The notes under the pieces were generated by a model, which worked only from the letters and a program-made list of their open reading frames with translations, was not told where the DNA came from and did no database searches. A DNA stretch of 54,169 bases from an uncultured Succinivibrio sp. (GTDB lineage: Bacteria; Pseudomonadota; Gammaproteobacteria; Enterobacterales; Succinivibrionaceae): contig LR994470.1 of the NCBI GenBank assembly GCA_905186145.1, positions 1,117,376 to 1,171,544 on the forward strand, in the 5' to 3' direction. Within the stretch, counting starts at the first letter, position 1, and every line of letters begins with the position of its first letter. Of this stretch, positions 7,449 to 24,342 are shown piece by piece. The translations under genes and the position numbers were made by a program.

Positions 7449-8306
7449 ATGGGGATTTTAAAAAGGCTCAGCAGTCCGCAAATTAAACCATCAAAATCAG
7501 ACAACAAGCTTATACGCTATTTTCTCGACAACGGTTTAAAAGCATGTTCGTCCTCTATATCTGAAATTTCATCTGACTGCGATATCTCTCATGCAACTGT
7601 TACTCGCTTTGCACGCAAATTTGGTTTTGATACCTTAAAAGACTTCAAAATCGCTTTAGCACAGGATTTAGGTGCTCAGGATAATGACAATAAAATAAAA
7701 CGTCCTGCAATTAACTTAAAAGAGTCTTGCGAAGCTACTGCCCAAAAGCTATTACAATTAAATCAGACCTTATTGTCACAAACTGCCGCAGAAATGGACT
7801 TTGGTTCTATTAGCAAATTAGTCCAAGAGATTATTTCTTGCCGTCATATGTATTTCTTTGGTATTGGCTCATCAGGTTTCTTAGCTCGTGACGCAGCTCG
7901 TAAAATTGCCCGTATCGGCATTGATGTTCGCTGCTTTACTGACTCTCATGAAATCATGACTCATTCAGCATTAGTTAAAAATACCGATCTTGTAATCTAC
8001 TTATCAAATTCAGGAAGAACTGGTGAGTTAGTAAAATCAGCTATTATGTGTAGTAAAAGAAATGCCATGATCGCTGCAATTACAGCGGAAAGTGCTTCCC
8101 CTTTATACTCATTAACAGATATCACTATTTTGCATGCCGTTCATGATTATGATTTAACTCAAGGCTATGCAGACTCAAGACTCTCTGTATTTTTCATCAT
8201 CGATCTTATTTACATTGAACTTGTAAAAGTCTTAGGTCCTAATGCCATTAAGATAAAACAAGAAACACAAGAGGCTATAGATTCCTTAAACGGCTCTTCT
8301 GATTAG
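7449..8306 (+). CDS. MurR/RpiR family transcriptional regulator
   Basis: HTH_6 motif SHATVTRFARKFGFDTLKDFK plus SIS domain FGIGSSG...SNSGRT. Confidence 0.92.
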   Translation: MGILKRLSSPQIKPSKSDNKLIRYFLDNGLKACSSSISEISSDCDISHATVTRFARKFGFDTLKDFKIALAQDLGAQDNDNKIKRPAINLKESCEATAQKLLQLNQTLLSQTAAEMDFGSISKLVQEIISCRHMYFFGIGSSGFLARDAARKIARIGIDVRCFTDSHEIMTHSALVKNTDLVIYLSNSGRTGELVKSAIMCSKRNAMIAAITAESASPLYSLTDITILHAVHDYDLTQGYADSRLSVFFIIDLIYIELVKVLGPNAIKIKQETQEAIDSLNGSSD

Positions 8307-13745: not shown

Positions 13746-14708
13746 CTATATAAGAGATTTTAATGAATTAGCTAAATCTACCTGAGAGGCAAAAGCAGCT
13801 TCAACCATTGCTACAGCTAAAGCTTCATCACCTGCGCTGGCATGACTTTTAACCACAATGCCATTAACACCTAAAAGAGGTGAGCCATTATACTGCCAAG
13901 GCAAAAGCCAATCAGGCCATGCCATTTTGGCAAAAAATCTTTTAAGACCTGGACCTTTGGCTAAAATACCGGCAACGCCTTCGGCTGCTTTTAGCGCCAC
14001 ATTGCCTGTAAAACCATCAGTAACGATTACGTCAGCATCACCTGAAAATAAATGATCGGCCTCAACATAACCTTGAAAATAAAGGTTTCTATCAGCATCT
14101 AAAAGATCACGAGTTTCCTTTACAACTAAAGGTCCTTTATTACGCTCAACACCTACGTTTAATATAGATACTCGCGGGGCCTCACAGCCCAAGCAAATAT
14201 TGGCATAAGCGCTACCTAATCGTGCAAAGTCGTAAAGATCTTTACTTGAGCAACTGGCATTGGCGCCTAAATCAAGCATTACAGAGAATCTACCGACACC
14301 TGCTGGAATCTTTTTAGCCAAAGCAGGTCTTATCTTATCTACAGTACCTAAAATATGTCTTGCTAAAGTAACCAAAGGGCCTGTACCACCACTTGAAACC
14401 ATGGCATTAGCCTCGCCTTCTTTAACACTTAACATAGCAAGGCGCATCGCTGCGCGTTGATAGCCTGTTAAAACGCGACGCGGAGTTTCATCTTGAGGAA
14501 TGCTCTGCGGTGCTAATCTGAAGGTATAGTTCTTTTTACTAATACCTGCTCGGCTTAAATCTTGTTCAAGCTCAGATGAGCCATAAATGATCAAATGGAT
14601 AGAAGGATTCATAGCCAGGGCAAAACGAACTGCGCCGACTACTTTATTAGTACTGCGGTTATCACCACCAGTACCATCAAGAGCTATGGTAATAGAGTTT
14701 TCTTTCAA
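13746..14708 (-). CDS. plsX: Phosphate acyltransferase PlsX
   Basis: IALDGTGGD, RPALA, LDLGAN, VIVTDGFTGNVALKAAEG and VVKSH motifs; TTG start. Confidence 0.93.
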   Translation of the reverse strand: MKENSITIALDGTGGDNRSTNKVVGAVRFALAMNPSIHLIIYGSSELEQDLSRAGISKKNYTFRLAPQSIPQDETPRRVLTGYQRAAMRLAMLSVKEGEANAMVSSGGTGPLVTLARHILGTVDKIRPALAKKIPAGVGRFSVMLDLGANASCSSKDLYDFARLGSAYANICLGCEAPRVSILNVGVERNKGPLVVKETRDLLDADRNLYFQGYVEADHLFSGDADVIVTDGFTGNVALKAAEGVAGILAKGPGLKRFFAKMAWPDWLLPWQYNGSPLLGVNGIVVKSHASAGDEALAVAMVEAAFASQVDLANSLKSLI

Positions 14709-14715
14709 GGTATTG

Positions 14716-14746
14716 AAAAGGGCGTTAGGCTTTCGCCATAACGCCC
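14716..14746 (-). terminator. Terminator/attenuator after rpmF, immediately before the plsX start
   Basis: Minus strand GGGCGTTA-T-GGC-GAAA-GCC-TAACGCCC-TTTT (GNRA loop, U tail). Confidence 0.7.
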
Positions 14747-14834
14747 TATCTCCAGAAAGGTTTAAATTCTCAATGAGGGTTTAAATAAAATATACCACCA
14801 TTGCCTTACTGATTAAATATATTAAAGTCGGATA

Positions 14835-15029
14835 TTACTTGTCGGACTTAACTTGGGCCGGGGTAAGATTTAACTTCTCACCGCGATAGTATCCGCTTGG
14901 AGTCATATTGTGACGAATATGAACTTCCTTGGAATTGGAATCAATCGATAACTGCATCGCTGATAAAGCATCATGGGAACGACGCATGTCACGGCGTGAA
15001 CGGGACTTATGAGTCTGTTGAACTGCCAT
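14835..15029 (-). CDS. rpmF: 50S ribosomal protein L32 (Cys-free form)
   Basis: [22 protein letters not shown]; GGAG SD upstream. Confidence 0.96.
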
Positions 15030-15125
15030 TGCTGTCTCCTAAATTTTCTTAAAAAACTGCGGAGAACATCCCCCGCTTGCTGTATAAACCAAATTTCTAC
15101 CACCTCAGGTGGTACTAGACGCAAT

Positions 15126-15154
15126 ATTTTATTCTTAACACGAACTTTTTTCAA
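15126..15154 (-). promoter_or_regulatory. Sigma70 promoter for rpmF-plsX-fab
   Basis: Minus strand TTGAAA-N17-TAAAAT. Confidence 0.7.
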
Positions 15155-15279
15155 TACTTTTGTCTAAATATTCCTAACCATATGATTTTAACCTTTATTT
15201 ATCTTAAAGATAATCTATTTAAAATCTTTCTAAAAATTTATGTTAGAAACTAAAAATATAAGAAAAGAAATTCATTCTA

Positions 15280-15341
15280 AAACTGTTTACAAAATTAAAT
15301 AAAAAATTTAAAAAATAATTTTTTACATTTGTAAACGGTTT
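15280..15341. promoter_or_regulatory. Inverted-repeat operator candidate upstream of the pgm operon
   Basis: AAACTGTTTACAAA (15280-15293) / TTTGTAAACGGTTT (15328-15341), one mismatch, plus the palindrome TTTACATTTGTAAA (15322-15335). Confidence 0.45.
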
Positions 15342-15672
15342 ATATCGCATTTTTTAAAAATATTTTCTAAAAAAAATACAGTTATAAACACAACTGCTTT
15401 TTTTTAAGTTTAGTAGTTTAATTTTAGATTTTATAAAATCTATTTTTTTATAAAAATAAATAGATAACTCATACCAAGTTTTATTTTTTATATAAATATA
15501 TTTTTATTACCTCTCAAACTAAATTTTACGCAATATTATTATCCTACACTTATTATTTACATTTTCTTAACATAAATTTAACAAATATTTAACATTAACT
15601 TTATTTATGGTATAAATAGCAAAATTTTTTACCAGTAACATTTTCAATTCACACTTTCGTGGGTGGATAACT

Positions 15673-17304
15673 ATGTCAAGAGCAGGTATTTTGGCAAGCA
15701 ATTTTCCACTTACCAACATTCAAAGACTTATAAGTCTTTATTATGAGGTTTGTCCTAATTTAAATGATCCTTTAAATCTTGTATCTTTCGGAACCTCAGG
15801 ACATCGCGGAAGCCCAAATAATGGCTCATATACAGTCCATCATATTGCAGCCATATCTCAAGCTATAGCCGATCTTAGAAAAGAATGGAATATTACCGGT
15901 CCTCTTTTTATTGGTATGGATACTCATGCCTTATCTGAGTGTGCTTTACATACAGCTTTAGAGGTTTTATGTGCCAATGGTATTGAGGTGGTTGTTGCTA
16001 AAGATTTTGAATACACCCCAACTCCGGTTATCTCTCGTGAGATCGTAAGACACAATTTTAAGCGTACTTGTAACTTAGCTGATGGCATTATCATCACCCC
16101 ATCCCATAATCCTCCTCACGATGGTGGTTTTAAATACAATCCACCTTTAGGAGGACCTGCTAATCCTTTCTATACCAAACCTATTGCCGATAGAGCTAAT
16201 GAAATCTTAAAAAATGGTAATAAAGAAGTTAAAAAGATTTCTTGGAATGATGCTTTAAAGTGTGAAAACCTGCATTTTAAAGATATGCTCACCCCTTTTG
16301 TAGATGAGTTAAGTTCTGTAATTAACTTAAAGGCAATTAAAGACTCAAAACTTAAAATTGCAGTAAATCCTCAAGGTGGCGCTTCCTTAAAATACTGGGA
16401 TCGTATTGTTGAAAAATACGGTATTGATGTAACCATCATCAATCGCACCATCGATCCTACCTTCTCTTTTATGCCATATGACTATGATGACAATATTCGT
16501 ATGGACTGTATGTCTCCTTACACCATGAAACCTCTTATGGCTTTAAAAGAAAATTTTGATGTATGCATTGCCAACGATCCTGATTCTGATCGCCATGGAA
16601 TTGTCACCAAAGAAGGACTTTTAAACTCAAATCATTATTTAAGCTCCATCATGCACTATTTGTGCCACAACCGTCCTTTATGGCCAAAAAATGGTGCTGT
16701 AGGTAAGACTATTGGCGCCACTATCATGATGGATAAGATTATTGAGGATGCCGGTTATAAAGTTTATGAGACTCCTATTGGCTTTAAGTGGTTCTCTGAG
16801 GGCTTATTTAAACAAGAGCTTGTTTTTGGTTGTGAAGAAAGTGCCGGAGCCTCTTTCTTAGACTTAAATGGCAATCCATTTACCACTGATAAAGACGGCT
16901 TCTTAGCTGGCTTAATTGGCTGTGAGTTATGTGCCATCTCAAAAACCGATCTTGTAACTTATTATAAAGATCTTACCTCCAAATTTGGTGATCCTCATTA
17001 TGGTCGTATTGATGAGATAACCACTCCTGAAGGAAAAAAAGCATTCGTAAATCTCACTGAAAAAAGTGTCAGCCAAGACACCCTGGCCGGACAGAAAATC
17101 TTAAAGGTCATGACTCGAGCCTCTGGCAATAACGCTGAAATTGGTGGCGTTAAGGTCTTAGCTGACAAATGCTGGTTCTCAGCTCGTCCATCAGGCACAG
17201 AAAATATCTACAAAATTTATTATGAGTCTTTCTTAAGTGCTGAACATTTACAGCAAGTTAAAGAAGACGCTGTCAATATCGTAAACCAAGCCATCAAACA
17301 ATAA
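15673..17304 (+). CDS. pgm: Phosphoglucomutase (alpha-D-phosphohexomutase, E. coli Pgm-type, divergent)
   Basis: FGTSGHRG, TPSHNP (phospho-Ser), NDPDSDRHG (metal loop), GCEESAGASF and RPSGTE motifs. Confidence 0.9.
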   Translation: MSRAGILASNFPLTNIQRLISLYYEVCPNLNDPLNLVSFGTSGHRGSPNNGSYTVHHIAAISQAIADLRKEWNITGPLFIGMDTHALSECALHTALEVLCANGIEVVVAKDFEYTPTPVISREIVRHNFKRTCNLADGIIITPSHNPPHDGGFKYNPPLGGPANPFYTKPIADRANEILKNGNKEVKKISWNDALKCENLHFKDMLTPFVDELSSVINLKAIKDSKLKIAVNPQGGASLKYWDRIVEKYGIDVTIINRTIDPTFSFMPYDYDDNIRMDCMSPYTMKPLMALKENFDVCIANDPDSDRHGIVTKEGLLNSNHYLSSIMHYLCHNRPLWPKNGAVGKTIGATIMMDKIIEDAGYKVYETPIGFKWFSEGLFKQELVFGCEESAGASFLDLNGNPFTTDKDGFLAGLIGCELCAISKTDLVTYYKDLTSKFGDPHYGRIDEITTPEGKKAFVNLTEKSVSQDTLAGQKILKVMTRASGNNAEIGGVKVLADKCWFSARPSGTENIYKIYYESFLSAEHLQQVKEDAVNIVNQAIKQ

Positions 17305-17316
17305 AGGAGGCTATTT

Positions 17317-18135
17317 ATGCAAATTAAGTTTATGGGAACTGCTGCATCTGAAGGTATCCCAAATCCTTTTTGCAACTGCAAAGTATGTACCTATGCTCGT
17401 GAAAACGGCGGTAAGAATGTAAGAACTCGCGCATCTTTAATGATTGACGGTCATATTGCTATTGATATGTCACCTGAGTGGTCTTATCAGTTAAAGCGTG
17501 AAAACATGACTGCCCGTGATACTGATATGGTGCTCTTTACTCATACTCACCCAGATCATTTCAACGTAGGTGAATTTGTAAGCCGTGCTAAGGGTTTTGC
17601 TCAGAATATTGAGTTTCCACTGCACGTCTTTGGTAATGACTGTGCCATTAAAGGTGCTTTTAATGCTTTAGATGGTTTACAAGGAGACCGCTTTGTTTTC
17701 CACTTAGTAGCACCATATATCACATGTGAGCACGCAGGATACAAAATTACCCCTACCTTAGCCAATCATGCCAAGATGGAGCTTTGCTACAACTACTTAA
17801 TTGAAAAAGACGGCAAGACCTTCTTCTATGGCTTAGATTCAGGATGGCTACCTGAGAGCACTTTTGAGTTCTTAAAGGGCCGTCATATTGACGTTGCAGT
17901 TCTTGAATGCACCTACGCCTTCCGCGAAGGTGAGAAGACTGCAAACCACTTAAACTTCAAATCCCTTTTTGACGAGGTTGCCTTATTAAAAGAATTATGC
18001 TGCCTTGACAAAACCTCTCGTGTAATTGCATCTCATGTGTCTCACTCTTCAACCTTAAATCACGAAGAGCTTGAAAAACTGATGCAAGAGCACGGCATTA
18101 TTACCGCCTTTGATGGCTTAACTTTAGATATTTAA
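17317..18135 (+). CDS. PhnP-like metallo-beta-lactamase-fold phosphodiesterase
   Basis: GTAASEGIPNPFCNCKVC (structural Zn CxCxxC as in PhnP), THTHPDHF, ANH, LDSG, NHL and SHVSH metal ligands. Confidence 0.85.
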   Translation: MQIKFMGTAASEGIPNPFCNCKVCTYARENGGKNVRTRASLMIDGHIAIDMSPEWSYQLKRENMTARDTDMVLFTHTHPDHFNVGEFVSRAKGFAQNIEFPLHVFGNDCAIKGAFNALDGLQGDRFVFHLVAPYITCEHAGYKITPTLANHAKMELCYNYLIEKDGKTFFYGLDSGWLPESTFEFLKGRHIDVAVLECTYAFREGEKTANHLNFKSLFDEVALLKELCCLDKTSRVIASHVSHSSTLNHEELEKLMQEHGIITAFDGLTLDI

Positions 18136-18160
18136 AATATAATACGGAGACTTATTTAAG

Positions 18161-19372
18161 ATGAAACTTATGATGAGCCGCCTCATGGGTATGATGTTCA
18201 TCCAATACATCGTACAAGGAGCATGGGTATTAACTTTAGGACTTGTTTTAAGTTCTTATGGCATGAAAGAGATCATAGGTACCGCTTATGCTGTATTAGG
18301 TATTGCTACCATCATGTCACCAATGTTCGTAGGCATGGTTGCCGATCGTTTCTTTGCTACTGAAAAAGTATTAGGTATCTTACACTTAATCCTTGCAGGT
18401 GTAATGTATCTGACCTCTACATTCATTGTCAGTGGTCAAGCTACAATGACTCTTGTTGGTATTTTCTTTGTAGGTTTAATCTACTATCCAACAGTAGCTT
18501 TAACTAACTCCATTTCTTTCCATCATGTTGATGGTCCACGCTATTTCCCTGTAATCCGTGTATTCGGTTCTATTGGCTATGTAGTTTTAGGCCTCTTCAT
18601 CGGTCAAATGGGTTGGTCAGGTGACGTTATGACCTGGTATGTTGCTGTAATCTCAGCTTTAGTCATGGGCTTATACAGCTTCACCTTACCCCACACTCCT
18701 CCAAAAAGCGCCGATGCACCTTTCTCTGTACGTGATTTGTTCTGCCTTGATGCCATGGCATTATTTAAAGACAAATACTTCACCATCATGATGATTGCCA
18801 TTTTAATTTTAATGGTACCTAAGACTGCCTACTCTGCATACATTCCTGTATTCTTAAACGCTTTAGGCTTTGACAATGCTGCATCTATGATGCAGATTGG
18901 TGTAGCTATGGAAGTTCTGTTTGTATTCTTCATTCCGTTCTTCTTAACTCGCTTTGGCTTTAAGATTACTTTAATGCTCGGCATGATTTCCTGGGCTATT
19001 CGTTCTGTTCTCTTCTCTGAGGCTGCATTATCTGGCAGTTATGCTATGGTTATTATAGGCCTCGTACTTCAAGGCGTTTGCTGGGATTTCTTCTTCACCG
19101 TTGCAGATATTTATGCTGATAAGAAAGCTGGCGACAATATTAAGTCTCAAGCTCAGTCACTGCGTTTTATCGCCTCAAACGGTGTAGGTCTGTTCTTTGC
19201 CTCATCCGTCTGCGGTTACATCTTCAACAACAATGTAACTGACACTGGTGCTCAAGGCTTAGCTCAGTGGGAAACCTTCTGGCTCTTCCCTGCTGCCATC
19301 GCAGCTGGTGTCTTCGTTGTCTTCCTCTTATGTTTTAAGGATGACACCAAGACCGTTGTTACTTCTAAGTAA
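18161..19372 (+). CDS. MFS transporter, nucleoside:H+ symporter (NupG/XapB/YegT) family
   Basis: MMFIQYIVQGAW, ADRFFATEK, FPVIRVFGSIG and LTLPHTPP-like (FTLPHTPP) motifs; 12-TM profile. Confidence 0.88.
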   Translation: MKLMMSRLMGMMFIQYIVQGAWVLTLGLVLSSYGMKEIIGTAYAVLGIATIMSPMFVGMVADRFFATEKVLGILHLILAGVMYLTSTFIVSGQATMTLVGIFFVGLIYYPTVALTNSISFHHVDGPRYFPVIRVFGSIGYVVLGLFIGQMGWSGDVMTWYVAVISALVMGLYSFTLPHTPPKSADAPFSVRDLFCLDAMALFKDKYFTIMMIAILILMVPKTAYSAYIPVFLNALGFDNAASMMQIGVAMEVLFVFFIPFFLTRFGFKITLMLGMISWAIRSVLFSEAALSGSYAMVIIGLVLQGVCWDFFFTVADIYADKKAGDNIKSQAQSLRFIASNGVGLFFASSVCGYIFNNNVTDTGAQGLAQWETFWLFPAAIAAGVFVVFLLCFKDDTKTVVTSK

Positions 19373-19411
19373 TTTTATTTAACTCAATATCATTAGGAGG
19401 AAAGAGACACA

Positions 19412-21064
19412 ATGAATATAGTTTTGAGCTTATTATCTGGAATTGCGCTATTAGCTTATGGCATTTACGTTACCAAAAACGGTGTGCTTAAAGCCTGCGG
19501 TTCGTCGCTCAATGTCTATGTTGCAAAGTCTCTTTCCTCAAAATTTTGGCCTCTGCGCGCTATTTTGGCAGGACTTTTAACCACAGCTTTAGTTCAAAGT
19601 TCAAACGCTACGGCCATGCTAGTGTCATCATTTTTAGCCAAAGGTCTTATATCACTAACCCCAGCTTTAACCATTATGTTAGGTGCCGATTTGGGCACTG
19701 CAGTAATGGCCAGAATTTTAACATTTGATTTATCCGCTGTATGCCCTTTACTTATAATCGTAGGAGTCTGTTTATTCTTAGGAAAAAGAAAGAAAGCCTC
19801 TAAAATTGGGCGCATTTTTATTGGACTTGGATTAGTTTTAATGTCATTAAAACTTATCGTAAGTTCGACAGCCCCTGTTGCAAAATCAGATGTTGTAATC
19901 TTAATTTTAGATTCTTTAAATGGCGAGATTGCGCTTTCTATTATCTTTGGCACGCTCTTGGCAATTATCTGTTATTCTTCTTTAGCAGCTGTCCTTTTAA
20001 CTGCAGTTATTGCAAGCAGTGGACAGTTAGCTTTTTCAACCGCGCTTTCTTTAGTTATCGGTGCAAATTTAGGTAGTTGTATCTTAGAAATTTTAGGATC
20101 TGCAGGACAAGGCATTGCCGCAAGACGCGTCATGTTTGGTAATACTTTTTTCAAACTTACCATCACAATTTTAGTATTACCTTTTATATCTTATTTAGAT
20201 CCAAATTATTTAAACATGAAGATTCAAGAACAGATTATCTATTTTCATGTTCTATTTAATTTACTTGTTTGTTTTGGTCTTGTAGCCTTTGTACCTTTTT
20301 ATGCAAAGTTATTAAATTATCTTTTCCCAAATCCACCAACACCTTTAGATGAAACTACACCTAAATATTTAGATGAACATGCCTTAGAAAATCCAGCATT
20401 GGCTATTTCCAATGCTGTGCGTGAAAGCGTTAGACTTGGTGGCTTTTTACATGAGATGCTAGGTTACTTCAAAGACAGTTTGACCGGAAAAACTTCATTT
20501 AAAGGTCAAATTGAATATAAGATGTCGCAAATTGAGAATATCAGCTTAAAAACTCGTTCCTATCTTGATCAAATAGAGTTTGACGATGCCAATTTAAATG
20601 CTCGATGGCATCAGATTTTTGCTGCAGTTGTCTCAGCTGTTCATGCAGGCGACTTAATTAAAAGAATGCACTCTGAGGTTAACATCATCAATAAAAGTGC
20701 CGATTACAATTTAAATGCTCATAGCAGAGCCGATCTTATAAAACTCACCCAAATTGTAAATGAAAATTTATCTTTTGCTCTCAATGCTTTTATGACTGGC
20801 AAAGAGTCTGAGATAGAGATTATTTTTGAGCATAAAAGTACCTTTAAGGTATTAACAGATAAATACTCTGTACGACAATTAAATAAACTCTCTCCTGATT
20901 CAAGCGGTGGTAATGATATCGGAGCTTTAATTCTTATTCTTATCTCTGATCTAAGACAGTTAAATGGAATTTTTTGCTCCATTGCAAGTTCTCGTTGGGC
21001 TCAAATTAATGCTCATAACAAGAACAACAAGGTTAAAGATGAAGCTCCATTTATTGAAGACTAA
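19412..21064 (+). CDS. Na/Pi cotransporter family protein (YjbB/NptA-like, PhoU-like C-terminus)
   Basis: TALVQSSNAT, MLGADLGT, CYSSLA and GANLGS repeats; KYLDEHALENPALAISNA linker. Confidence 0.9.
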   Translation: MNIVLSLLSGIALLAYGIYVTKNGVLKACGSSLNVYVAKSLSSKFWPLRAILAGLLTTALVQSSNATAMLVSSFLAKGLISLTPALTIMLGADLGTAVMARILTFDLSAVCPLLIIVGVCLFLGKRKKASKIGRIFIGLGLVLMSLKLIVSSTAPVAKSDVVILILDSLNGEIALSIIFGTLLAIICYSSLAAVLLTAVIASSGQLAFSTALSLVIGANLGSCILEILGSAGQGIAARRVMFGNTFFKLTITILVLPFISYLDPNYLNMKIQEQIIYFHVLFNLLVCFGLVAFVPFYAKLLNYLFPNPPTPLDETTPKYLDEHALENPALAISNAVRESVRLGGFLHEMLGYFKDSLTGKTSFKGQIEYKMSQIENISLKTRSYLDQIEFDDANLNARWHQIFAAVVSAVHAGDLIKRMHSEVNIINKSADYNLNAHSRADLIKLTQIVNENLSFALNAFMTGKESEIEIIFEHKSTFKVLTDKYSVRQLNKLSPDSSGGNDIGALILILISDLRQLNGIFCSIASSRWAQINAHNKNNKVKDEAPFIED

Positions 21065-21080
21065 AATTTTTATTTAAGGC

Positions 21081-21109
21081 AAAAAGTGAGCAAATTTAGC
21101 TCACTTTTT
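21081..21109. terminator. Bidirectional terminator
   Basis: AAAAAGTGAGC-N7-GCTCACTTTTT between convergent genes. Confidence 0.85.
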
Positions 21110-21127
21110 ATTTAACTCATTAAACCT

Positions 21128-21520
21128 TTATGAATTTCTGTAATTTAAGCCATCATCTGCAATCCATTTAACATACTCTTCACCTTCATAGCCGCATTTA
21201 TGGCATACAATCTTTCTTATTTTAACCCTGACTTTAGAGTTAACATTCATAACCATGAAATTAAAAACATCTTTTTCATAAGTTTCAATTTCTTCAACAT
21301 CAGAGCTTTGGCATTTTTTACATCTAGGAGCATTTTTAGGCTCTACATAAAATACAGGACCTGTCTGAACTGGCTCTTCTAAAAAAACATTAGTGTCAGT
21401 TTTTCCACCATCCATTTTTACGATTTCATATCCAGGAAAGCCCTTCTCTGAAAAAAATTTAAAAAAACCTTCTGCAGATTTTTGCTCTTTTATTCTTGCA
21501 AGTTTAGCTCTATTTTTCAT
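21128..21520 (-). CDS. Small Zn-ribbon protein resembling the ISL3 transposase zinc-finger domain, without a catalytic domain
   Basis: CKKC-x36-CHKC followed by EEYVKWI; own AAGGA SD and TAA stop. Confidence 0.6.
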   Translation of the reverse strand: MKNRAKLARIKEQKSAEGFFKFFSEKGFPGYEIVKMDGGKTDTNVFLEEPVQTGPVFYVEPKNAPRCKKCQSSDVEEIETYEKDVFNFMVMNVNSKVRVKIRKIVCHKCGYEGEEYVKWIADDGLNYRNS

Positions 21521-21682
21521 ACAAAATCTTCCTTAAGAAACGAAATTAAAATTCCCTGTATACATAATATATATAAAAAAACTCTCAAAAAATCAAAAAA
21601 ATGATTTTAAGAGAGTTTTGAAAGTAAACTAAGTTTGGATGATAACTAAATATATAGTTATATTATATGTTAAATTTAAATT

Positions 21683-22432
21683 TTATTTTGAGCTACCAAA
21701 CCATTTTTGATAAATTTCTTTATAAGTTCCGTCAGATTTAATTTGCGAGAAGCCTTTATTTATCATATCAATTAACTCCTGATCATTTTTGTTGATAACA
21801 ATGCCATATTGATCAGCTGTAATTAAATCTGGTAATAAAACTAAATTTTTATTGTTAGTTTTGGCCATATAGTACTCAAGTACAGGTCTGTCATTGATGT
21901 GAGCATCACAACCTTTCTTATCAAGTTCTAATAAAGCCTCAGGAGCTGAATTAAATTGAGTAACTGTAGCGTCTTTAACCTGAGAGCTGGCATAAAAAGC
22001 TCCTGATGTACCTATTTGACCACAAATCTTATGGCCTTTAAGATCGTCTACACTCTTAATTTCTTTTTCTAACTCTTTACGAACAATTACACCTAAACCT
22101 GCAGCACAATAAGGCTCTGAGAAAGCAACACGCTTTTTACGCTCATCGGTAATGGTAAATCCTGAAATACCTGCATCTAAGGATCCTGTTAAAATAGCAG
22201 GAATAAGTCCGTCAAAAGGCATGGTATGCATTTCAACAGTAAAACCGCCGGCCTTACCAATAGCATTTATAATATCAATATCGAAGCCACTGAGTTCTTT
22301 ACTATTCTCATCCATGAATTCAAACGGAGCAAATGAAGGTTCTGTTCCTACTCGAACAGTGCGATTACCAGCTACTGCCTGAGAAACTAAAACAGCACTT
22401 AAAGTAATCGCAAATAAATTCTTAAACTTCAT
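21683..22432 (-). CDS. Polar/basic amino acid ABC transporter substrate-binding protein (SBP_bac_3), orphan
   Basis: Signal peptide AVA; VGTEPSFAPFE, GFDIDI, FDGLIPAI, ITDERKKRVAFSEPY and YKEIYQKWFG motifs. Confidence 0.92.
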   Translation of the reverse strand: MKFKNLFAITLSAVLVSQAVAGNRTVRVGTEPSFAPFEFMDENSKELSGFDIDIINAIGKAGGFTVEMHTMPFDGLIPAILTGSLDAGISGFTITDERKKRVAFSEPYCAAGLGVIVRKELEKEIKSVDDLKGHKICGQIGTSGAFYASSQVKDATVTQFNSAPEALLELDKKGCDAHINDRPVLEYYMAKTNNKNLVLLPDLITADQYGIVINKNDQELIDMINKGFSQIKSDGTYKEIYQKWFGSSK

Positions 22433-22461
22433 AACATCTCCTAAAATATAAATAAATATGA

Positions 22462-22477
22462 TGTGACCACAATCATA
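22462..22477. promoter_or_regulatory. CRP-like site upstream of the SBP gene
   Basis: TGTGA-CCACAA-TCATA (consensus TGTGA-N6-TCACA). Confidence 0.4.
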
Positions 22478-22822
22478 AATTTATCTTTTGTTTTTATTCA
22501 ATAAGAAAATTTTTGTGCTCAAAATTTAAGCAGACTGAACCTTTTTTAAAACTTTTATAAGAAGATGATTTAAATGATGTTTATGACTAATTGTTAAAAT
22601 TTTATGCACTTTTTTAATACATGCAGTGGTAACTTTTTGGTTGAAAAAATTTTATAAAATATCCATAGACTATCAAAAAATTTTTTTAATTTGCCTTAAA
22701 GTAAACACAGAAAACACAAATCTTTGTGTGTAACTACATAGTAAATTTTTTTATTTTGCAAAAAATAAAGTGTAAATTTTTATAAAAATAACTTTTTGCT
22801 TTTATAAAAAAAGAGGATTTGT

Positions 22823-23743
22823 ATGCGCAAAATTATTATTGATACAGATATTGGTGTTGATGACGCTTTTGCTGTTCGCTATGGATCGTTGGTATTTGAT
22901 CTTATTGGTATTACGACCGTAAATGGTAACTGCACTGCTAATATGGCTACCCAAAACGCCAAACTATTTTGCTCACACTATAAAAAAAATATAAAAGTAT
23001 ACAAAGGAGCTTCTAGACCTTTAGTGGAGCCACCATCTCCTCCAAGCTTTGATATTCATGGTAAAGATGGCTTAGGCGGTGTTTACGATAATCCTTTTGA
23101 TGATAAAGCCCCTAATGCTATTGAATACCTCATCAATAATGTAAAAGAAAACCCAGGTGAGATTACCGTCATAGCTATAGGCCCTCTTACTAATATTGCC
23201 ATAGCCTTAAATCTTTATCCTGACTTTGCCAAAGATATAAAAGAGCTGGTCATTATGGGTGGTGCTTTTGGCTTTAATGGTCATAACGGTAATATGAGTC
23301 ATTTTGCTGAATTTAATATCTACAGTGATCCTCATGCCGCAGATATTGTTATGCAAAGCTCAATGCCAATTACTATATTACCTTTAGATGTAACCAATAA
23401 AGTTCAAATTACTGCTAAAGAAGTTGCTAATACTAATGATGAGTTTTTAAAAAATATCAGTAAGTTCTATATAGATTTTTCTTTAAAGCAAAAAATTTTC
23501 CATGATATGGCTGTTCACGATGCGCTAACTATTGCCTATCTTGTAAATCCACAAGCTTTTACCACAATTAAAAAGCCTTGCCGTGTCATAACATCAGGTA
23601 TTGCAAAAGGTCAAACTGTAATTCCAAGAGATGAAAGAGTCGCCCCAAACGATTGTTTCTTAGGCTTAAAAGAGCACACAATCTGCATTGATGTTGATGT
23701 AAATGCTGTAAAAGAACACTTACTTAATACATTGAAAATTTAA
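22823..23743 (+). CDS. Inosine/uridine-preferring nucleoside hydrolase family protein
   Basis: IIIDTDIGVDD (DxDxxxDD), GPLTNIA, AEFNIYSDP and HDAL motifs. Confidence 0.92.
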   Translation: MRKIIIDTDIGVDDAFAVRYGSLVFDLIGITTVNGNCTANMATQNAKLFCSHYKKNIKVYKGASRPLVEPPSPPSFDIHGKDGLGGVYDNPFDDKAPNAIEYLINNVKENPGEITVIAIGPLTNIAIALNLYPDFAKDIKELVIMGGAFGFNGHNGNMSHFAEFNIYSDPHAADIVMQSSMPITILPLDVTNKVQITAKEVANTNDEFLKNISKFYIDFSLKQKIFHDMAVHDALTIAYLVNPQAFTTIKKPCRVITSGIAKGQTVIPRDERVAPNDCFLGLKEHTICIDVDVNAVKEHLLNTLKI

Positions 23744-23746
23744 AAG

Positions 23747-23787
23747 AAAACGCCCCCAATATAGAAATCTAAAATTGGGGGCGTTTT
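23747..23787. terminator. Bidirectional terminator between the nucleoside hydrolase and yceD
   Basis: AAAACGCCCCCAAT...ATTGGGGGCGTTTT 14-bp arms. Confidence 0.85.
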
Positions 23788-23808
23788 TACGCTTAAAGTT
23801 GAAAAAAT

Positions 23809-24342
23809 TTATTTTTCTTTATTAAACTTTTCTTTAAGCTCTGCTAATCTTGCAAAAGGATTTTCCTTATCTTGAGCAATTTCACCAAAAGACCAGTTAG
23901 TATTGTCGTTACACTTAGGATCGTCATCATCATGTTTTGGCACATATGGGATCTCAAGCATTAAACAATCTTCCAAATAATTTAAAAGCTCAAATTGACC
24001 ATTAGGATTTAACTCAACAATATCAAGTTTATCCTCAATTCTTAAACTACAAGCTTTCTCCTTATCAGGAGTTGAACAAAATTTTGCAGATAAAGTCTTT
24101 TCAAAAGGCTTACCACAACGCTGACAGACAAAACTTACCTTGCAGCTAATTTCACCTTCGATAGTGTTTAAGCCCTGTAAATCTCTGTAAAAACGAAATT
24201 TTACGTGAGCTTTAGATAAAATCTCACTGCAACACTCTGATAAACGCGGTAATAAGTTTTCGGAAATATTAGTATCATACTGAAGACCTTGTTCTACGCT
24301 TTGAACAAAGTCTACGCAAGGTGAAAAAGCAAGTGCGCACAT
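23809..24342 (-). CDS. yceD: YceD/DUF177 family protein (23S rRNA accumulation)
   Basis: CQRC Zn motif, EDCLMLEIPYVPKH and NPFARLAELK C-terminus. Confidence 0.88.
   Translation of the reverse strand: MCALAFSPCVDFVQSVEQGLQYDTNISENLLPRLSECCSEILSKAHVKFRFYRDLQGLNTIEGEISCKVSFVCQRCGKPFEKTLSAKFCSTPDKEKACSLRIEDKLDIVELNPNGQFELLNYLEDCLMLEIPYVPKHDDDDPKCNDNTNWSFGEIAQDKENPFARLAELKEKFNKEK

Follow-up and report, generated by a model that had tools for sequence, protein, structure and literature searches.

A mobile, recurring gene cassette of Succinivibrionaceae and its possible role in the catabolism of phosphorylated sugar compounds

What use does a bacterium make of an operon in which a second phosphoglucomutase, a phosphoesterase, a relative of the nucleoside permeases and a phosphate transporter stand one behind the other? 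The question is posed by a stretch of 54,169 nt from an uncultured Succinivibrio sp. (GenBank assembly GCA_905186145.1, contig LR994470.1, positions 1,117,376 to 1,171,544), which in its full length is referred to here as the window and which carries the four genes at positions 15673-21064. They encode PgmL, a divergent alpha-D-phosphohexomutase; a metallo-beta-lactamase-fold (MBL) phosphoesterase of the PhnP family; a major facilitator superfamily (MFS) transporter of the NHS family; and a YjbB-type Na/Pi protein (NaPi). A full-text literature search for this gene combination found no paper describing it. Our answer, which we hold with moderate confidence, is that this cassette represents a mobile, catabolite-controlled operon that allows an anionic sugar or riboside phosphate ester to be used as a carbon source, by way of hexose-1-phosphate, a mutase step and the export of inorganic phosphate (Pi).

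In the pathway that we envisage, the NHS-type protein would act as a proton symporter and bring in a phosphate-bearing glycosyl or ribosyl compound. In the cytoplasm, the MBL enzyme would cleave either a P-O bond, in a cyclic phosphate or a phosphodiester, or a P-O-P bond to yield hexose-1-phosphate, and PgmL would convert this product into the 6-phosphate for glycolysis. The YjbB-type protein would export the surplus of phosphate that results from burning a phosphorylated compound for carbon. What the sequences themselves establish is the gene content, the intact catalytic motifs, the co-inheritance, the mobility and the CRP-type sites of orthologous promoters; which way the transport runs, which bond is cut, what is released and what YjbB does are the parts of this scheme that we infer. 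The initial annotation of the window, made from the sequence alone, had drawn a similar outline of uptake, opening, mutase entry and phosphate balance; the conserved, co-inherited unit behind this outline holds up, the standard nucleoside importer that went with it does not, and the specific substrate is one candidate among several.

All four open reading frames lie on the plus strand and are spaced by 12, 25 and 39 nt, so that the co-oriented layout first described is borne out by their coordinates. Each start codon is preceded by a Shine-Dalgarno-like motif, these being GGGTGGA, AAGGAGG, ACGGAGA and TAGGAGGAAAGAG for genes one to four. The single terminator that had been placed after the operon is likewise found, as a bidirectional intrinsic hairpin at 21081-21109, just past the last stop codon, which reads AAAAAGTGAGC-aaattta-GCTCACTTTTT and is followed by ATTT; it is absent from the list returned by a consensus terminator scan, and no plus-strand terminator occurs at the internal gene junctions of the operon. 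The Pfam and NCBIfam domains of the products are, in order, PGM_PMM I-IV, Lactamase_B_2 (with PhnP as the best NCBIfam model), Nuc_H_symport and Na_Pi_cotrans/TIGR00704. At the level of the superfamily the MBL, PgmL and NHS proteins are all recognized as members, but at the level of equivalogs the PhnP-, Pgm- and NupG-type products fall below their cut-offs, and the YjbB-type gene is the sole member of the operon to exceed a curated one.

Do the four genes belong together? A survey of one genome per GTDB species gave 80 loci from 29 genera, of which 11 come from Succinivibrionaceae. Within this family PgmL is found in ten of the 11 loci and NaPi also in ten, in the order of the window and between at least six different sets of flanking genes; the exceptions are one truncated contig and one locus (L050) that has FeoB and not PgmL. 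The order PgmL-MBL-NHS is seen in every context in which a member of the PgmL clade was found (the window, genome G002, and loci L014-L021 and L025-L028), with the Na/Pi gene adjoining or no more than 4 kb away, and the PgmL clade was never met apart from the MBL. Hosts of the cassette include Succinatimonas hippei YIT 12066, Ca. Anaerobiospirillum merdipullorum and Ca. Avisuccinivibrio. Across hosts that range from 37 to 56% in GC content, protein identities extend from 86 to 59% for PgmL, 86 to 65% for the MBL, 89 to 77% for NHS and 79 to 50% for NaPi, and since the four proteins diverge in parallel, the unit must be old and co-inherited. The arrangement recurs far beyond chance, which settles in the affirmative the question, left by the initial annotation, of whether the four genes co-occur elsewhere.

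Beyond this family the central two genes travel in other company. In 78 of the 80 loci, which come from 29 genera, the NHS gene stands directly behind the MBL gene, the other two loci being cut contigs; the evolutionary core is thus the MBL and NHS pair, and PgmL and the Na/Pi protein are accessories specific to Succinivibrionaceae. Outside the family the pair is accompanied by a regulator of about 725 aa, composed of LacI helix-turn-helix, LacI core and SBP_bac_1 domains (59 loci, 20 genera), and by MgtC (45 loci, 14 genera), which sits at the position equivalent to that of the Na/Pi gene. This sister module of the Enterobacterales, Orbaceae, Pasteurellaceae and Paenibacillus has orthologous MBL (44-53% identity) and NHS (50-65%) proteins in the same order and with the same spacing, but the 725-aa regulator and MgtC replace PgmL and YjbB. 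Its hosts, which belong to about 25 genera, encompass the Klebsiella oxytoca group, Proteus (including P. mirabilis), Providencia, Serratia, Erwinia and Pantoea, as well as Gilliamella, Orbus, Frischella, Testudinibacter, Haemophilus parainfluenzae, Paenibacillus and the IncHI1B plasmids of E. coli. De novo clustering of the neighbors in the 80 loci returned, beyond NHS, the LacI-SBP regulator, MgtC, PgmL and NaPi, only housekeeping synteny (cysS, folD, efp, holA).

The regulator of the sister module offers a clue to the ligand. Its solute-binding (SBP) domain is of the CUT1, or sugar, type and has weak matches in the PDB (E = 0.003-0.05) to binders of maltose, sophorose, sorbitol and trehalose, with UgpB not among them; this hints at a sugar ligand but is not decisive. 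MgtC has reportedly been tied to phosphate balance in work on Salmonella, and by analogy it may have a phosphate-balancing role in the sister module related to that of the Na/Pi protein. The sister-module loci are numbered L054-L122 and include, for example, those of Proteus mirabilis (L066), Klebsiella oxytoca (L056), Gilliamella apicola (L097) and Paenibacillus chitinolyticus (L107); in Serratia-type genomes the module is inserted between cysS and folD. More distant MBL homologues, with no more than 38% identity (Marinitoga, L029 and L030), have no NHS neighbor and uninformative surroundings and were set aside.

The cassette is also horizontally acquired and mobile. Among 25 genomes of the same genus the MBL gene occurs in only two, and in one of these, G002, the cassette occupies another locus than it does in the window genome. 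DNA homology between the window and three same-genus genomes stops at about 15170 and restarts at about 23792, which places the cassette within an 8.6-kb insertion (15171-23791, without strand). The genomes G005 and G008, and likewise G002 at its syntenic locus, have plsX-rpmF immediately adjoining the homologue of window positions 23809-24342.

The nature of the substrate has to be approached through the individual proteins, and above all through the MBL enzyme, which is encoded on the plus strand at 17317-18135 (272 aa, PF12706) and is predicted to be a PhnP-family binuclear phosphoesterase. It displays the features of the broad PhnP family: the HxHxDH motif, the distal His, Asp and His ligands, the general-acid His and the CxCxxC zinc site. 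Within an alignment of 57 homologues C19/C21/C24, H76/H78/D80/H81, H151, D174 and H211 are invariant, with H211 aligning as the equivalent of the general acid H200 of PhnP. Two further histidines, H240 and H243 of an SHxSH motif, are nearly invariant in the 57 and completely so in a 40-member subfamily that is linked to NHS. The PhnP-like assignment first given to this protein therefore stands, in that all of the PhnP catalytic residues are retained, albeit in a genome without a carbon-phosphorus (C-P) lyase.

That last point separates the enzyme from PhnP itself. The initial annotation had noted that the window holds no C-P lyase genes, and the same is true of the whole 2.04-Mb genome, where no homologue of phnJ or phnM is found and where the matches to PhnK and PhnL are generic ABC (ATP-binding cassette) ATPases. 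On the PhnP model TIGR03307 the protein scores 74.7 bits, far under the cut-off of 272.25 bits, and the idea that it is the true PhnP of a C-P lyase pathway was rejected on both grounds; in a genome without this pathway it is not an enzyme of phosphonate breakdown. PhnP, the E. coli phosphodiesterase for 5-phosphoribosyl 1,2-cyclic phosphate (3G1P), and the cassette enzyme share their fold, length class, metal ligands, general-acid His and N-terminal CxCxxC zinc site, but they are only about 23% identical, and the cassette enzyme is always paired with an NHS transporter.

An AlphaFold2 model of the protein (predicted local distance difference test score, pLDDT, 95.4) has as its top structural matches 6B9V (E = 7e-20, TM-score 0.74-0.81) and PhnP 3G1P (E = 2.7e-19). 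The former is cited as a PhnP-family diphosphatase that acts on photoproducts of flavin adenine dinucleotide (PMC7599082, its ref. 15, Beaudoin et al. 2018) and shows that PhnP-family enzymes are able to cut the pyrophosphate of ADP-X compounds to give AMP and X-phosphate. The family can thus open cyclic phosphates, cleave diesters or cleave the pyrophosphate of an ADP-X compound. Although 6B9V is the best structural match, its identity to the cassette enzyme is only 23-24%, and whereas its own context is flavin metabolism, the cassette gives no sign of a flavin substrate.

The transporter (18161-19372, plus strand, 403 aa) is an NHS-family MFS symporter of a subtype that is linked to the MBL. 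It matches PF03825 with 254.6 bits; within the same genus the NupG-type proteins score 316-338 bits on this model and the cassette type 254-262 bits. On TIGR00889 it reaches 244.8 bits against a cut-off of 446.1, and so falls short of the equivalog for NHS nucleoside permeases. The nearest solved structure is YegT (8ZOJ, 196 bits), followed by NupG (144 bits), with identities of 34% and 28%, respectively. With both NupG (7DL9) and YegT it shares the twelve-transmembrane NHS fold, R136, T/S140, E264 and the GxxxD motif of transmembrane helix 10.

In NupG the residues that contact the ribose, those that contact the base and the GxxxD proton site have been assigned their roles (PMC8042404), and these groups fare differently in the cassette protein. 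The ribose contacts R136, T140 (a serine in the cassette) and E264 and the proton site are kept in all cassette orthologues, but the base contacts are replaced: Q261 by V and Y318 by Q, with Q225 falling in an alignment gap and N228 giving way to a lysine (K221) that is invariant in the cavity throughout a family alignment of 78 members. F322 is also changed, to W. YegT similarly misses the NupG base contacts and does not bind standard nucleosides (PMC11979927), although a circumstantial tie between its operon and ADP-glucose has been noted (PMC10819704). The initial annotation was thus right to place the transporter in the NHS family but not to regard it as a standard nucleoside importer. With its ribose contacts kept, its base contacts replaced and an invariant lysine in the cavity, the pocket fits, so far as its aligned residues can tell, a negatively charged sugar or riboside.

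This transporter also bears on whether the module might serve detoxification or resistance, such that a toxic natural product resembling a nucleoside or a nucleotide would be inactivated by the MBL and exported by the MFS protein. The pairing of an MBL-fold enzyme with an MFS pump is common in resistance, and the module is found on E. coli IncHI1B plasmids. The transporter, however, belongs to a family of importers and keeps the proton-coupling site of NupG, and the Pgm paralog, the CRP sites described below and the sugar-sensing LacI-SBP regulator fit catabolism, such that we consider this explanation extremely unlikely.

In Succinivibrionaceae the mutase helps to constrain the product. PgmL (15673-17304, plus strand, 543 aa) contains all four PGM_PMM domains (PF02878, PF02879, PF02880, PF00408) and has the loops that typify the alpha-D-phosphohexomutase superfamily, namely TPSHNPP, DPDSDRHG, GCEESAG and RPSGTEN. 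The genome, a single contig, encodes three phosphohexomutases: GlmM, a canonical Pgm and PgmL. The second housekeeping pgm that the initial annotation had proposed to look for is therefore present, and scores 907.7 bits on TIGR01132, whereas PgmL, at 691.8 bits, lies under the cut-off of 778.05; the window gene is a distinct paralog. The two proteins are 52% identical without gaps, and both keep the four catalytic loops. E. coli Pgm, an alpha-D-glucose-1,6-bisphosphate-dependent phosphoglucomutase that is 48% identical to PgmL and 61% to the housekeeping copy, is likewise a collinear four-domain protein, in which the phosphoserine loop is the same and the loops for metal, sugar and phosphate are conserved, but it is not linked in an operon to an esterase and two transporters as PgmL is.

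In a phylogenetic tree PgmL falls among 17 clusters that form a clade of their own (SH-aLRT support 100); this clade excludes the housekeeping Pgm both of Succinivibrionaceae and of other phyla and is distinguished by 29 clade-fixed substitutions. Of the two motifs by which PgmL had been called divergent, both are present but only one is diagnostic. The metal loop DPD[S/A/G]D does mark the clade, for 95 of 101 housekeeping sequences read DPDYD there. The cysteine of GCEESAG, in contrast, also occurs in the housekeeping Pgm of the same genome and in 91 of the 101 close housekeeping sequences, and hence is a lineage trait and not a marker of the paralog. Other changes beside conserved motifs are VSS to GA[T/S] and W to F, and the reduced size of the residues at these two sites, as well as near the metal loop, suggests that the pocket of PgmL may be enlarged. 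The EES loop, which binds the hexose, does not vary in any of the 17 clusters, and this intact sugar loop points to a hexose phosphate as the probable substrate.

An enlarged pocket would also suit a serious rival to the hexose-ester scheme, which is a nucleotide-type substrate. Here, 2',3'-cyclic nucleoside monophosphates (cNMPs) or short NpN phosphodiesters from the breakdown of RNA in the gut would be imported, the MBL would give rise to a 3'-NMP or to an NMP and a nucleoside, Pi would be exported and RihC would split the nucleoside, with PgmL serving as a ribose phosphate pentomutase or even as a 3'-to-5' nucleotide mutase. PhnP acts on 2',3'-cNMPs in vitro, the transporter retains the ribose-contact triad, and the smaller residues at three sites of PgmL (Y to S/A/G, VSS to GAT, W to F) would widen its pocket. 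The window genome lacks both deoB and deoA, so that the role of a pentomutase would be vacant, and has only a weak deoD-like match; nucleoside catabolism, judged from gene content, probably proceeds here by hydrolysis and not by phosphorolysis. The same genome contains two Rih-type nucleoside hydrolases, two copies of glgC and two of glpQ.

One of these hydrolases, an RihC-like ribonucleoside hydrolase (22823-23743, plus strand; PF01156, E = 5e-82), lies within the insertion, and a co-oriented homologue of 71% identity is found about 800 nt downstream of the cassette in the Succinatimonas genome L044. In all contexts other than the window and L044, which are both of one genus, the window genome being a probable Succinatimonas, a Rih gene beside the cassette is absent, and the hydrolase is possibly a loose accessory of the cassette and not a part of its core. 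Besides this narrow distribution, the invariant hexose-binding EES loop of PgmL, the lack of a nucleotidase or a nucleoside phosphorylase in the cassette and the sugar-type (CUT1) binding domain of the sister regulator all speak against a nucleotide substrate, which we judge to be unlikely while still taking it seriously.

The last gene of the operon (19412-21064, plus strand, 550 aa) was originally likened to E. coli YjbB, and the comparison proves sound: it encodes a full-length, collinear homologue with 37% identity over residues 1-540 of 550, and its score on TIGR00704 (236.9 bits) exceeds the cut-off of 210.1. RefSeq describes E. coli YjbB as a putative Pi exporter. The Pfam PhoU model matches E. 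coli YjbB and does not match the window protein even at E <= 1, yet the region in question still aligns with YjbB. No other member of the family is present in the window genome.

Whether such an operon answers to carbon or to phosphorus was approached by searching 17 loci for CRP and Pho boxes. CRP-like boxes (TGTGA-N6-TCACA) with no more than one mismatch occur 72-90 nt 5' of the PgmL ATG in six orthologous loci, which are L017 (at about 8270-8290), L049, L027 and L043-L045, an example being TGTGATCTATATCACA; four further loci have boxes with two mismatches. In a shuffled 250-mer, a box with at most one mismatch would turn up with a probability of 0.002. The search for Pho boxes was negative for all of the 17 loci. 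The presence of CRP-type sites and the lack of Pho boxes suggest that the cassette is controlled by carbon rather than by phosphorus. In the window itself, the operon is preceded by an AT-rich leader or promoter region (15171-15672, plus strand) with one sigma-70-like match at 15567-15595, and the promoter-proximal 60 nt or so resemble the loci of the S. hippei type. A riboswitch or other leader RNA was considered and rejected, as an Rfam scan of 14500-22900 returned no structured RNA in or around the operon at E <= 1.

These observations weigh most directly on the idea that the operon scavenges phosphorus, with Pi being harvested from an organophosphate diester and the Na/Pi protein acting as a Pi importer. 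True importers do exist in the Na_Pi_cotrans family, PhnP-like and GlpQ-like diesterases are classic functions of the Pho regulon, and a glpQ gene lies upstream of the cassette in L014 and L047. Nevertheless, a Pho box is found in none of the 17 loci and CRP-type sites are present instead; the Na/Pi protein is a YjbB-type protein that is collinear with its E. coli counterpart over the full length; and a dedicated mutase suits the flux of carbon and not the release of phosphorus. In L014, moreover, a tRNA-Leu gene and about 500 nt separate glpQ from the cassette, and since two glpQ genes occur elsewhere in the window genome, this upstream glpQ was rejected as a member of the pathway. Taken together, these points make phosphorus scavenging decidedly improbable.

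The surroundings of the cassette vary. In L014 and L047 it follows a tRNA-Leu gene, and in the former (Ca. Anaerobiospirillum merdipullorum, L014:8056-8138) this is a tRNA-Leu(GAG) that comes after glpQ, the cassette starting about 200 nt later; a tRNA gene is a typical integration site. In L019 and L026 a variant of the cassette is followed, at 16163-19679, by genes for an IolG-like dehydrogenase, a sugar MFS transporter and an AP_endonuc_2 (IolE/IolI-like) protein. These inositol genes were rejected as pathway members, as two small genes and a DDE_3 transposase intervene and the arrangement is known from one context only, and the inositol-type cluster is probably unrelated to the cassette. 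In G002, L017 and L027 a gene for a protein of about 600 aa lies divergently upstream (L010:4306-6102, L017:6161-8023 and L027:7867-9630, minus strand); it has no Pfam domain, and its copies are 28-38% identical to each other and match an IS1634 transposase model only weakly (34-72 bits, cut-off 100). The intergenic region between this gene and the cassette is filled with repeated TTTTACAAC-like motifs. The gene could be a long-associated or domesticated transposase, or else a regulator, and it has no copy in the window genome.

Mobility of this kind raises the suspicion that there is no shared pathway at all, and that a single mobile element simply carries a redundant pgm, a generic hydrolase and two transporters along as passengers. 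The IS1634-like gene upstream in three contexts would agree with this, as would the apparently unrelated genes in the right part of the window insertion, where orf130 and an orphan GlnH-like solute-binding protein without permease genes accompany the RihC-like hydrolase. Set against it are the persistence of gene order, orientation and tight spacing at 50-60% protein identity and in hosts of very different GC content, the adjacency of MBL and NHS in nearly all loci of the 29 genera, and the standing of PgmL as a distinct clade that is never found away from the MBL. We therefore regard hitch-hiking as very unlikely.

The proposal of a catabolic operon for a phosphorylated sugar compound has its own difficulties. 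In Anaerobiospirillum L050:5310-9265 the MBL, NHS and NaPi genes stand without PgmL and with FeoB upstream, and PgmL and NaPi are both missing from the 69 loci outside Succinivibrionaceae, which means that the mutase step is not universal to the MBL/NHS module. Genes of the YjbB family are also present in seven same-genus genomes that have no cassette. The CRP-like box of the window promoter itself is degenerate, with four mismatches, and CRP regulation may have been lost or changed here after insertion. As for expression, fragments identical at 100% to all four genes are found in a gut metatranscriptome, but the contigs are of low depth, none spans a gene junction and they could reflect carry-over of DNA; gut metagenomes, canine ones among them, commonly contain the sequence. 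So far none of the proteins of the MBL subfamily, the NHS subtype or the PgmL clade has been characterized. Finally, we know of no precedent in the NHS family for the import of a dianionic NDP-sugar (nucleoside diphosphate sugar) by an MFS proton symporter.

With these reservations, the candidate substrates of the catabolic operon can be placed in an order of preference: NDP-hexoses such as UDP-glucose and ADP-glucose, hexose 1,2-cyclic phosphates and other diesters of hexose-1-phosphate. NDP-hexoses explain the most, because the importer would recognize ribose, a PhnP-family diphosphatase provides a precedent for the cleavage and glucose-1-phosphate would be the product, and also because RihC is near the cassette in two Succinatimonas contexts and the sister regulator has a sugar-type SBP domain. 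The glucose or ribose 1,2-cyclic phosphate that the initial annotation gave as an example remains one candidate among several, not singled out over NDP-hexoses or other diesters. The narrower version of our proposal, in which an NDP-hexose or a hexose cyclic phosphate set free by cell lysis in the gut is taken up by the MBL-linked NHS proteins, is put forward only tentatively and is itself rather unlikely. In this version they would be the first importers among the MFS to act on phosphorylated nucleoside-sugar compounds, and together with a PhnP-family diphosphatase or diesterase and the dedicated Pgm paralog they would make up a cytoplasmic route of consumption that was not known before.

In some respects, the logic of the cassette resembles that of known operons that combine an importer with a phosphodiesterase. 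The ugp/glpQ and agrocinopine acc operons likewise provide for dedicated uptake, cleavage of a phosphate ester and the passage of a phosphosugar into central metabolism. However, these systems employ ABC importers and diesterases of the GDPD family, whereas the cassette uses an MFS/NHS symporter, a PhnP-family MBL, a Pgm paralog and YjbB, such that all of its parts come from other families.

If the proposed pathway is correct, it would extend the NHS transporters, among which YegT still counts as an orphan, to a new class of substrate. It would also give PhnP-family enzymes a new physiological task beyond phosphonate metabolism and define a functionally specialized clade of phosphoglucomutases. 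The core of MBL and transporter reaches across its 29 genera into organisms of clinical and ecological importance, including Proteus mirabilis, the Klebsiella oxytoca group, Serratia and the bee-gut Gilliamella, and onto E. coli plasmids, and should the version with an NDP-hexose or a cyclic phosphate be true, it would account for an operon that stands as an orphan in Proteus, the Klebsiella oxytoca group, Serratia, Providencia, Gilliamella and Paenibacillus. Within this broad distribution the Succinivibrionaceae version is especially informative, since its extra Pgm and YjbB genes constrain the product of cleavage, and as Succinatimonas hippei YIT 12066 is in culture and carries the cassette, the pathway is directly testable.

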